DNA from: Schmidtea polychroa
Taxonomy: Eukaryota
DNA length: 64,000 bases
Assembly (NCBI GenBank): GCA_044892525.1
Contig: CM097887.1
Coordinates: forward strand, 44,020,001-44,084,000
Direction: 5' to 3'
Made by a program: the position numbers and the translations under genes. This document shows positions 50,066 through 54,784 of this stretch, in pieces; positions within the stretch are counted from its first letter, which is position 1, and every line of letters starts with the position of its first letter. The notes beneath the pieces were generated by a model. The model saw only the letters and a program-made list of their open reading frames with translations, was not told where the DNA came from and did not search any database.

Positions 50066-53000
50066 TTAGTAATGATCCACTGTTAATAAATAGTCGTAAT
50101 TCACTTTTCCAGTTCCACTCGGGAGAATAGTGTCTACTATTTCCGTTATTACCCTTTCCTTTTTCGAGGGGAATAATAAGTTTCTGCGTGCTGCTTCAAT
50201 AGCATCACTTGAATACATTCCACTTTGAGTCATGCTGTCTAGCGATGTAAAGTTAATTAGATATTCTAATTTTGTCAACTCCAATTTTTCTGGGACTTTC
50301 ATCCCTCTATGATCAGGTAGTGCAATCCATGATTCGGGCGTCAGGCGGTATAGTGGAGCCAATAATCTGTTGCACTGCAACACTCTCGGTTTCGCGTCCT
50401 CCTCCAATAAAATTCGTGTCACCGGCTCCATGAATCGTAGCTTCCCATTAACATTCACAGGCAGTTCATTTGTGCATTGATTGTATTTCATCAATTTAAT
50501 AGGCACTGCCTTGCATTTATAACTATATAAGGCTTCACCAAGCATTCGAGCGAATACTCCATTCTCCGAAATCAACATTGGAGCAACTAGATTCGGGTTC
50601 GTGATAGCCATCGCCATTCTGTTTCGCAGGATTTCTTTGTTTAACTTGCAATCATTTAGTATGATTTCCCTGTACACACTTTCAATTGTATCTTGGCTAA
50701 AATGAAATAAATAGTCAATCTTATTATTGAAATAGTTCGTTAGTTTAATTTCCTCTGCGTACAATTTTGTTTGAGCTTCTTCGACAACTTTCTTGGATAA
50801 ATAAATTCCTTTATAATTGGTCTCATAAACAGTTTGTCCACACTTCGTATTTACGCTCTTCCTTAAGAATCTCATCCCATCGTTTGGGGACATTGCCATT
50901 AAAACCGTTGGCGTTTTCTTCAAGCGTATCGGTGTGATTCTAAGTGTCATATTCATGACTGAGTTTAGCACTGTGCTTTCTGGTCTCTCTTGGATCTGCT
51001 CTCCCGTTATCTCTTTAAAAGGCATTGATTTTAAATGTGCTAAATTGCATTTTTTGGTATCAACTTCATATACCAGAATTGACTCACCTGTGTTGCAGCT
51101 TTTCTCCCTCATGTTACAAAATGGATGGGTTTGCAATTTTCCCGTATCGTCATCGAATGATCCATCAAAATACCTTAATTCGGTTTCATATTCTTCTATC
51201 ACTACGGTTTTATCAATGACTGTTTGTCCTACTTTATACGCTTCACCCTCGCAATCGCCATTTGCCTTGATTATCCCCTTAACTGCTATAGTTTCACGAA
51301 TTTTATAGTTTAATTTAGCCTTCAAATTAATTTCTGAATTTATTTTCAGCTCTCCTGTTTGGAACGCTGCCAAACAGTTTTCCCGTGTCACCTCTATTAC
51401 TCTTGGAATTGAGTGCATTTTGATTAATGACGAATGGCTCCATTTGCCACAGTAGAATATAAACGTAGTTCTTTTTGCTGTGCATTCTCTCACTTTCACT
51501 CGTCTAAATCCCGCTTCTTGGTATACGTGGTATGTCACTTCATTTGCCCATTTTAAGTTCCTCGGATATGCGCCTGGACACTCTGCTACATCTACTAGCG
51601 AATATACTTTTCCCATTTCTGTCTGGGAGCAATCGTACGCTACCAAGGACGTTGTGGTATTAATAACTCCTAAAATCACCAAAATAGACATGGTTAGCCA
51701 TGGAAACATTATTTTCCCTCTTTTCGGCTCATAATTTCTTCCAGTTGTCGCAGTCTCCGACTTTTGCACCAAGTTTTCCCATCCTCCATTACGCATAATC
51801 CAACCCGTCACATATGTATTCGCCACTTCGGTGGCTTTTACTATCCATTTTTCCGATTTATCGCATTCCAAGCATCCATATACGCCAATTTCTAGAACAA
51901 TATAAGCAAGGACTGTTAGTACCACGTCTCTGTTCAAACCGTTCCTGATTAATCTCTTGACTACTGTTTCATCGCAAAATACCCTCTCTATGGTATTATC
52001 CTTTAGTACTACTGGAAGGCGACTTTTTAATACCGCTGCAAGCTGATGTATGAGTTCATCGTCACAACTATTTCCTTCTTCCAGTGCATATAATTCTGTT
52101 ACTAACCCTTTCAAAATTGATTCTGTTTGAGACATATTATTCAGATCCGTTTTTTCAACCACATTGGAATCTATTCTATCGTTCTCTTCGTTTCCACCCA
52201 TTAATTCGATTTTACACCGCTTTCGACCATTCAATTTACTTTCCGCTTCTACAAAATTCGACTCACTTTTCACTCTTTCACTCACTAGTAGCTCGTCGGT
52301 TATATGGTTAGTTTCCTGATTTACTGAATCATTTTCGTCCACCTCCTCACTCGTAATTTCGTCTTGCTCGTCATTTATGCCTTCATCTTTTGAGTCATGC
52401 TCTTCTAACTCGTAGTCGTTAGGTTCTTCAGCCAATTCCTTTTTAATTTCCATGTCATCATCCTTCGTATCCTTTGTAATTCTCGGCCAATGGGTTATTA
52501 TACTCTCGGATACCTCCCTCACCTGTTTCTTGGCTTCGATATTATTTATATAATTCGGACTGCACCCACAATTGATTAAGTATTCATCGTCATCTAACTC
52601 AACTCCCTTGAAAGTTAGTATAACAATTCCATCATTACCCAACATTTCCACCGCTTTCCGTCGTACTTTCGACACCTTCATGCTCCAGTGTTCTTGTAAG
52701 TACTCCACTTTCCCATTCATATTTAAGGCTATTACCAATGATCTGGGTATCTCATCTGACTCTCGGTGCTCACGGCCCATTTTTCGTACTATTTCTTTCA
52801 ATTTCGCCTGATAGTTCGTCGTTTTATGAATATACGGTAAAATACTCTCGAATAATTGTTCCTTCGCTTTTTGATCCATCTCCGAACTTATCATCCGTTC
52901 CAGACAATTACTAATTTCGTCTTCATCTCCAATATACAGACTATCCCGTAAATCCTGTAATTTTTCCTCCCATCCTTTAAAGTCTGAATTTGAATGATTA

Positions 53001-54784
53001 ATTACATTGAATATCTTTACCTCATTTTTATATCCAGGAATCAGCCCACAATCGACCAAATATTCTCCATCCGCCAATTGACCCATCGACCGTTTTTTGA
53101 AATTTATTTGCACTTCATTTGCTTTATATTTCGACATAATGAGCTCCGTCAAATCCTTTATTTGCCCGCTAGGTTTAATCGTAAATTGAAAGTTTCTGCC
53201 ATTTCCGTCTGTAGTTTCTACGAATATGTCGGTCAAGCTCTCTGTGGATCTCAGTGCTTTTCCCAATGTCTTTATTAGTTTTGCAATTTCATCGTCTTGG
53301 TATTTATTGTAAACTTTGACACACATGTTTAAAATAATTTTCAATTTTCTTTGGCTAAGTTGGATTTGAGTTAGTTCGGTAATCCACTCTTTCAATCTCG
53401 GAAGGTCTGTTTTCATTCCGGTATACCATCTTTCTATTTTCTTTATCAACAGAACAGCCTTTTCATTTGATAGATCATTTTTTGCTTTATCACTAAGATT
53501 TCCGCCCGCATCGGCCTCTTTTTCGTACACCATACACGAATCTGCTTCTTCATCTGATTCGAACTTTGACATAAGCTTGTTTAATTTCTGTCTCATTTCC
53601 CGAAATTCATTTTCCATTTTCTCTTTAAACTCCTCCTTTTGAGCATATGCAACATTAGTATTTGCTGATTCATCTTGAAATCTAATAGATTTCCTCAATA
53701 TTGGTCGGCTAAATCTTTCTGAGTTTCGGGGGCATGATCGAGCCATGTGGCCATAACCTTTGCATGAATGACATTGAATTTGTCCATTAGTGTTCACTTT
53801 ATCTCGTTGAGGCGACGGGGATCTTGATGGTGATGGGGTACCTGAAAAACAATTCCTGCTTATGTGGCCCATTTTCCCACATCTATAGCATTTCAAGTCA
53901 TTAATAATTGGCTTACTTTCTACAAACTTTTTTCTGGGGCTGGGGTCTCTTCCATATTTAAACCAGCATTGATTTGGATAGTGTCCCACTTTCTTGCAGT
54001 GATCGCATACTATGCTGTTAGATCTCGCAGCCACCTGACTCCCAAACGCTGCTTTATTAATTTCGACTTTATTACTTGGTCTTGGCGAACTGATTGTTTG
54101 GGTTGGTTTCTTTGATACCCATTGTTCTCGAACTGGAGTTACCGACCTTTCTCTTTTATCGGCATTTGCAGCAAATACTTCGGATTTTCTGGTACTTTTC
54201 AAGTTCAATTCAATTTTCATGGCTTTTTTCACAAGTTCATCAAAATTCGAGAAATCCACGTAGCATAGGGCTTTTTTAATTTCAGGAAGGGCTCCATTTA
54301 TAAATTGATCTTGAAGCAGTTCTCTGACTTGTTTTACCATCTCAACTTGTTCAGGCTTTGCTTCGAAGGCTTTGTCTGCTAAAGTCGTTAAATGGTATGC
54401 AAATTCACTTACCGATTCATTTGGATTTTGTACTCTGGCATAAAATTTTTGGCGCATTATTCTTTTTATATCGCCTCCCACCAATTTCATTGCCATCGCA
54501 TCCTTGAGTTTGGCCCAATCATTTCCAATTGTCTTTTTATCCACTTGCTGCCAAGCTTCTCTTGCGGCTCCTTTTAAATAGAGTGGGAATCTTTGTACCA
54601 TTATGGCTTGTGACCACCCATAGGCCGAAGCGTACATATAATAATCGCCCATGAAATCGGCAAAATCAACCGGGTCTCCTCCATACTGATTCACCGGTAA
54701 TTTTTGACAACTGGCAAAATCTATCATCTCAGCGTTCTCTCTGGCCATCTTTACTTTTCGGTTCCTCAAATTGTATTCACTCAC
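50066..54784 (-). CDS. Gag (capsid + 3 CCHC), 2x(helical + ubiquitin-like), acidic linker, Bcl-2-like domain, signal, chuvirus-like class III glycoprotein ectodomain
   Basis: CCHC knuckles at 53966-54007, 53849-53890 and 53732-53773; UBL-like at about 53010-53230 and 52530-52742; WIMRNGGWENLV; LVAYDC...YSLVDVAEC...YCGKWSH...LGEALYSYKCKAV...CTNELPV. Confidence 0.9.
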   Translation of the reverse strand: MSEYNLRNRKVKMARENAEMIDFASCQKLPVNQYGGDPVDFADFMGDYYMYASAYGWSQAIMVQRFPLYLKGAAREAWQQVDKKTIGNDWAKLKDAMAMKLVGGDIKRIMRQKFYARVQNPNESVSEFAYHLTTLADKAFEAKPEQVEMVKQVRELLQDQFINGALPEIKKALCYVDFSNFDELVKKAMKIELNLKSTRKSEVFAANADKRERSVTPVREQWVSKKPTQTISSPRPSNKVEINKAAFGSQVAARSNSIVCDHCKKVGHYPNQCWFKYGRDPSPRKKFVESKPIINDLKCYRCGKMGHISRNCFSGTPSPSRSPSPQRDKVNTNGQIQCHSCKGYGHMARSCPRNSERFSRPILRKSIRFQDESANTNVAYAQKEEFKEKMENEFREMRQKLNKLMSKFESDEEADSCMVYEKEADAGGNLSDKAKNDLSNEKAVLLIKKIERWYTGMKTDLPRLKEWITELTQIQLSQRKLKIILNMCVKVYNKYQDDEIAKLIKTLGKALRSTESLTDIFVETTDGNGRNFQFTIKPSGQIKDLTELIMSKYKANEVQINFKKRSMGQLADGEYLVDCGLIPGYKNEVKIFNVINHSNSDFKGWEEKLQDLRDSLYIGDEDEISNCLERMISSEMDQKAKEQLFESILPYIHKTTNYQAKLKEIVRKMGREHRESDEIPRSLVIALNMNGKVEYLQEHWSMKVSKVRRKAVEMLGNDGIVILTFKGVELDDDEYLINCGCSPNYINNIEAKKQVREVSESIITHWPRITKDTKDDDMEIKKELAEEPNDYELEEHDSKDEGINDEQDEITSEEVDENDSVNQETNHITDELLVSERVKSESNFVEAESKLNGRKRCKIELMGGNEENDRIDSNVVEKTDLNNMSQTESILKGLVTELYALEEGNSCDDELIHQLAAVLKSRLPVVLKDNTIERVFCDETVVKRLIRNGLNRDVVLTVLAYIVLEIGVYGCLECDKSEKWIVKATEVANTYVTGWIMRNGGWENLVQKSETATTGRNYEPKRGKIMFPWLTMSILVILGVINTTTSLVAYDCSQTEMGKVYSLVDVAECPGAYPRNLKWANEVTYHVYQEAGFRRVKVRECTAKRTTFIFYCGKWSHSSLIKMHSIPRVIEVTRENCLAAFQTGELKINSEINLKAKLNYKIRETIAVKGIIKANGDCEGEAYKVGQTVIDKTVVIEEYETELRYFDGSFDDDTGKLQTHPFCNMREKSCNTGESILVYEVDTKKCNLAHLKSMPFKEITGEQIQERPESTVLNSVMNMTLRITPIRLKKTPTVLMAMSPNDGMRFLRKSVNTKCGQTVYETNYKGIYLSKKVVEEAQTKLYAEEIKLTNYFNNKIDYLFHFSQDTIESVYREIILNDCKLNKEILRNRMAMAITNPNLVAPMLISENGVFARMLGEALYSYKCKAVPIKLMKYNQCTNELPVNVNGKLRFMEPVTRILLEEDAKPRVLQCNRLLAPLYRLTPESWIALPDHRGMKVPEKLELTKLEYLINFTSLDSMTQSGMYSSDAIEAARRNLLFPSKKERVITEIVDTILPSGTGKVNYDYLLTVDHY

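Follow-up and report, generated by a model that had tools for sequence, protein, structure and literature searches.

A duplicated unit of predicted helical and ubiquitin-like fold in the Gag polyprotein of a Ty3/gypsy element from Schmidtea polychroa

Introduction

The giant gypsy elements of planarians known as Burro (GYPSM1) encode in a single frame Gag with three CCHC knuckles, MATH, a Ubi2/SUMO-like motif, a BCL2-like domain, a mononegavirus-like envelope protein (env), protease and pol, and their cargo has been suggested to interfere with apoptosis and ubiquitination (PMC6431247, section 7). Burro transcripts are de-silenced when a PIWI protein is lost (PMC8532177), and six errantiviruses of Schmidtea mediterranea with the GAG-ENV-POL order and an HSV/gB-type env have been catalogued as Smed_errantivirus_1-6 (PMC13524379). 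Here, we analysed a 64,000-nucleotide stretch of Schmidtea polychroa DNA (assembly GCA_044892525.1, contig CM097887.1, positions 44,020,001 to 44,084,000; hereafter the window), whose minus strand carries a young, enveloped Ty3/gypsy element. While the overall layout of Gag, Ubi/SUMO-like motif, BCL2, env and pol has already been published, what is new is that the ubiquitin-like (UBL) cargo makes up one half of a unit that is itself repeated. Such a repeated combination of helices and UBL was not found described in the literature searched, a scope outside which the original genome paper lies.

Results

Following Gag and its zinc knuckles in frame, the region at 53470-52520 (minus strand, as for all features of the element below) comprises two homologous units of ~155 amino acids (aa). 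Aligned profile to profile, unit 1 and unit 2 matched at 96.6% (E 5.9e-10) over 131 columns, the helices included; the window's own two units share only 14% identity. These alignments show that one ~155-residue unit within the Gag polyprotein has been duplicated in tandem. This agrees with the initial annotation, which had described tandem helical and ubiquitin-like modules fused to Gag, and the peptides that it quoted are all found in the 1,575-aa frame (54793-50066) in which the modules sit; its reading of them as possible host-interaction or decoy modules is supported in part.

The initial annotation had also pointed to structure prediction for these modules and, in line with it, the model of unit 1 contains four helices and a ubiquitin beta-grasp (predicted local distance difference test, pLDDT, 85.7; predicted template modelling score, pTM, 0.81). 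The predicted fold of the unit is accordingly that of four bundled helices resting against a ubiquitin-type beta-grasp, with both halves forming one rigid body in the prediction; no structure listed in the structure comparison spans both. In unit 1, the four-helix bundle (53246-53470; pLDDT 87-94) is basic, with 16 K/R and 8 D/E, and is followed by the beta-grasp (53006-53245), assigned from the model and from structure and sequence comparison. The helical bundle of unit 2 (52760-52990) is homologous to that of unit 1 by profile-profile and sequence comparison, and its UBL domain (52520-52759), recognized by sequence comparison, has a conserved acidic DDDE patch. The hydrophobic I44 patch, a feature of proteasome-shuttle-type UBLs, is missing from both window domains, the I44-equivalent being Asn in unit 1 and Thr in unit 2. 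Each UBL domain follows a helical segment and lacks the terminal GG, as had been annotated; a C-terminal di-glycine was found in none of the 29 units, which by sequence are therefore not conjugatable (type I) modifiers.

At the end of helix 4, 24 of the 29 unit rows have Gly and 25 have Arg, and the UBL acidic patch (equivalents of ubiquitin residues 51-54) is near-invariant in the 16 unit-2 or single-unit rows; on the strength of these two features, we treat the helical and UBL halves as one unit. Of the 16 unit-2 or single units, 11 have a hydrophobic residue at the I44-equivalent position. In the Pfam scan, PF00240 (ubiquitin) matched six of the nine members (best E 1.2e-5), with L019, at 24.3 bits, lying under the cut-off of 25.4, and gave no match in the window's own units.

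More qualified is the proposed resemblance of the first helical part to the TFIIS N-terminal domain (TFIIS-N). The fold is compatible, in that the unit forms a compact bundle of short helices with a spacing compatible with the TFIIS N-terminal (LW) domain family, but it ties with generic helical bundles, the sequence signal is weak and the PF08711 (TFIIS-N) profile found no match in the units across Pfam scans. Moreover, the units differ from that family in lacking the IG motif of helix 3, whose Gly is invariant in 10 of 10 host TFIIS-N domains, and in having the terminal Trp mostly replaced, the corresponding position of the last helix being aromatic or Leu, with Trp in one of 29 rows. A TFIIS-N-like fold of the helical half is thus possible but unproven. 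As a separate observation, many near-identical PF08711-bearing frames of 450-520 aa at 164-172 Mb of C2 (G000) and on C31 represent an expanded host TFIIS-N gene family.

The 333-aa unit region, searched against the 781-Mb genome, returned 121 scored matches among 1,852 candidates. Matches cluster at ~99, 72, 60 and 50% identity, the 50% group holding at least 150 of them. Searches with distant homologues as queries added three groups with two units each (L049/L050/L094; L093; L080/L082/L095/L098), and the two-unit arrangement occurs in seven sequence groups of this genome. Among 1.84 billion representative sequences, nine proteins matched at E<=0.001, none of the outside matches having a name. 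Eight carry the unit, including two Gags with a single detected unit (one of which then has a Bcl-2-like end) and one protein with two units; the ninth was rejected as a chance coiled coil. By sequence, the unit is present in one, two or, in a giant element of Burro-1 type, probably three copies. Elsewhere, loci L091 and L092 (G000 C1, 15.56-16.04 Mb) hold a repeat with 99% identity across 6.5 kb, in which a unit-2 fragment lies on the strand opposite to an adjoining RING/TRAF-MATH-like gene.

The units are under purifying selection. In comparisons with the two nearest families, the ratio of nonsynonymous to synonymous substitution rates (dN/dS) was 0.12-0.22 for all four halves, compared with 0.05-0.09 for the capsid, 0.04 for env and 0.25-0.31 for the acidic linker; these values are rough, as dS of 0.7-2.2 places synonymous sites near saturation, and more distant pairs are saturated. 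Retention points in the same direction. A derivative family of 9-10 kb with a shared long terminal repeat (LTR) is devoid of env, protease, reverse transcriptase (RT) and integrase, and still encodes, in a 1,323-aa frame, Gag, the pair of units, Bcl-2 and the post-integrase membrane protein, which argues that the units matter even without an integrase in cis. In this family, L025 and L026 (G000 C3:78975003-78985164 and C2:17173543-17182860) are 99% identical to the window family in the LTR and 93% in gag DNA, just 68% identical in the unit-Bcl-2 stretch, and have the Bcl-2 anchor joined directly to the post-integrase membrane protein; by sequence, this is a recombinant non-autonomous family.

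A giant element with Burro anatomy (MATH, ankyrin, BIR) is also present in this genome (L066/L067) and is homologous to the window element, at 49% over RT-integrase and 32% over Bcl-2-env. The stretch lying between its MATH and BCL2 aligns with the unit at 53% (E 1.4e-4) over 134 columns, helices included; in a separate comparison it scored 14.0 bits, and the best null reached 9.4 in 200 shuffles, of which 190 were scored. Two weaker unit copies (7.5% and 2.6%) precede MATH. Because this stretch matches the unit in its entirety, the Ubi2/SUMO-like motif published for Burro most likely corresponds to the UBL half of the unit described here. Downstream of pol, L066 (44-2823) and L067 carry frames for BIR-RING (392 aa) and for TRAF-zinc-finger-MATH (487 aa); genome-wide, there are at least 150 BIR matches, most of them in 392-393-aa frames.

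The window element is bounded by TG...CA LTRs of 989 bp that are 99.7% identical (5' LTR, 54935-55923; 3' LTR, 25532-26520) and by a 4-bp target-site duplication, GTAC (55924-55927 and 25528-25531); a 4-bp duplication was found in all four copies checked, namely the window copy and three sisters. An 18-mer resembling a primer-binding site (54910-54927) starts with TGG 7 nt past the LTR, and a polypurine tract (26523-26533) lies just before the 3' LTR. Compared with ~16.5 kb in sister copies, the window copy is stretched to 30 kb by an insertion of 14 kb of non-LTR sequence, which has no counterpart in the sisters and is nested at 27053-41075 in the element's 3' region. This insertion contains two related frames of non-LTR RT type (66% DNA identity) that terminate in an endonuclease-like motif. 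Just past the 3' LTR, degenerate pieces of related LTRs (73-89% identity) occupy 24331-24579 and 25110-25216.

The polyprotein runs in the order Gag, three zinc knuckles, two units, acidic linker, Bcl-2-like domain, hydrophobic segment, env and pol. The Gag capsid region (54350-54748; PF03732, E 1e-7) begins at the first ATG, at 54748, and precedes the three CCHC knuckles (53730-54010; PF00098, E 4.9e-9). After the units comes the acidic linker (52139-52501; 38 D/E in 121 aa), which is the least conserved part, and then the Bcl-2-like domain with its NGGW motif (51750-52130). The latter has a homologue in the giant element's Bcl-2-env stretch; PF00452 (Bcl-2) matched weakly in three of four sister copies (E 0.02-0.044) and gave no match for the window copy in the Pfam scan. 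A hydrophobic segment (51656-51712; hydropathy 1.88) likely provides a membrane anchor or a signal for env, a class III fusion glycoprotein encoded between gag and protease (49730-51640; PF24664 of Monjiviricetes type, E 3.4e-72 and 2.6e-12). Past two in-frame stops, one breaking env at 50066-50068 and the other in pol at 48725-48727, the 1,575-aa frame runs on into protease, RT, RNase H and integrase (46598-49432; Pfam). The post-integrase tail (44804-45940), which has no Pfam match, consists of a hydrophobic stretch, a ~330-aa domain and a terminal transmembrane helix, and is likely a second surface protein.

Discussion

We put at roughly 45% the probability that the units provide a permanent, non-conjugatable docking surface for host ubiquitin-system proteins, recruiting ubiquitin-binding trafficking factors of ESCRT type (endosomal sorting complex required for transport) in place of late motifs, and thus possibly act as a built-in budding signal. 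The hydrophobic segment that follows the Bcl-2-like domain would be where the precursor is threaded into the membrane; anchoring there would keep Gag, the two units and Bcl-2 on the cytosolic side. Not being conjugatable, the units would act by binding, and a pair of them on every Gag would mean many copies exposed on the particle during assembly, where the ESCRT-type factors recruited by them would stand in for the late motifs absent from this Gag. PT/SAP and YPxnL were absent from 10 of 10 precursors, PPxY occurred in one (inside the MATH domain of the giant) and LPxY in one, in a scan that was scripted to residue 646 of the window protein, covered its remainder by eye and included several loci without the extreme N-terminus. 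This scarcity of late motifs, combined with the report that a Gag-fused ubiquitin without GG can replace a late domain if L8 and I44 are intact (PMC2958808), is why we favour a docking role.

Several observations weigh against docking. Since budding by fused ubiquitin, as described in PMC2958808, requires L8 and I44, it matters that the I44-equivalent is polar or charged in nine of ten unit-1 rows as well as in both window domains, and with a polar site canonical ubiquitin receptors may not bind the window UBLs. The UBL half shares only 9-22% identity with ubiquitin-fold proteins, and the units lie between Gag and Bcl-2 rather than at a free C-terminus. In addition, docking leaves the helical half without a role, and the retention of the units by non-enveloped-looking derivatives fits only if these share particles with full elements.

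An alternative that we consider unlikely, albeit the best placed of its kind, is that the units and Bcl-2 (with MATH/BIR/TRAF in the giants) form a host-manipulation cassette, in which the protease releases the units, which then, instead of serving particle assembly, intervene as decoys or adaptors in death or immune signalling that depends on ubiquitin. The units always adjoin the Bcl-2-like domain, are less constrained than capsid or env, and are accompanied in the giant relative by MATH, ankyrin, BIR-RING and TRAF frames, and section 7 of PMC6431247 puts forward the same idea; however, in-frame fusion to Gag would give a particle-level stoichiometry beyond the need of a signalling decoy. 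It is improbable that the units have a solely internal role, as a folding aid, spacer or assembly contact in the polyprotein whose ubiquitin fold no longer has host partners. The loss of GG and, in unit 1, of the I44 patch, the copy number ranging from one to probably three and the chance that conserved residues mark the helix-UBL interface would suit such a role, but the near-invariant acidic patch lies at the surface and the neighbouring domains are regulatory cargo. Equally doubtful is a helical half that, as a diverged TFIIS-N, recognizes elongation or chromatin factors by their TFIIS-N-interacting motifs, or the element's own integrase as LEDGF does, and so steers the incoming particle to active genes; the compatible fold would allow it, and the missing profile match and IG motif speak against it. 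We find it still less probable that the unit is a true TFIIS-N fused to a UBL, kept and multiplied on Gag by a whole flatworm errantivirus clade as a tether that, like LEDGF, links to transcription or chromatin factors of the host.

If the units are indeed a built-in budding signal, they would be a natural counterpart to engineered Gag-ubiquitin fusions, whereas a TFIIS-N tether would represent a new route of integration targeting. Either way, a compact 155-residue domain is defined that can be expressed and tested.

Among known domains, the UBL half comes closest to type II (integral) ubiquitin-like domains, such as the UBLs of Dsk2, BAG6 and Rad23 and the SUMO-like domains of Rad60/Nip45, with which it shares the beta-grasp (root-mean-square deviation 1.4-2.0 over ~70-75 residues) and the lack of a conjugation tail, and from which it differs in the low identity (9-22%) and the polar I44 site of the window copies. 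With Smed_errantivirus_1-6, as presented in PMC13524379, the window element shares the GAG-ENV-POL order and the env type. Compared by eye, the L020 family and Smed_errantivirus_2 have 5 differences in an env stretch of ~180 positions, and the window's own family, the env start of which is 74% identical to L020, is not among the six env rows; ubiquitin and Bcl occur zero times in the main text and seven supplementary files of that paper, and TFIIS zero times in its main text. Like Burro and other GAG-ENV-POL errantiviruses, the window element combines an LTR pair, primer-binding site, polypurine tract and target duplication with a class III env, set in frame after gag and ahead of protease, and with RT, RNase H and integrase behind it (this copy having two stops), and, as in Burro, Gag and three CCHC knuckles are followed by a UBL and then a BCL2-like domain (weak match, E 0.02-0.044). 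Unlike Burro in the strict sense, a giant with an internal region of up to 25 kb and MATH, BIR and ankyrin, the window family is compact (~16.5 kb), has no Pfam matches to these three domains in the window element, and possesses two adjacent units, whereas section 7 of PMC6431247 names one Ubi2/SUMO-like motif, with neither a helical partner nor repetition. At present, our analysis thus refines a known architecture, in which the Ubi2/SUMO-like motif of Burro would be half of a larger repeated unit, fixed and selected as part of the Gag precursor in GAG-ENV-POL elements throughout this genome.
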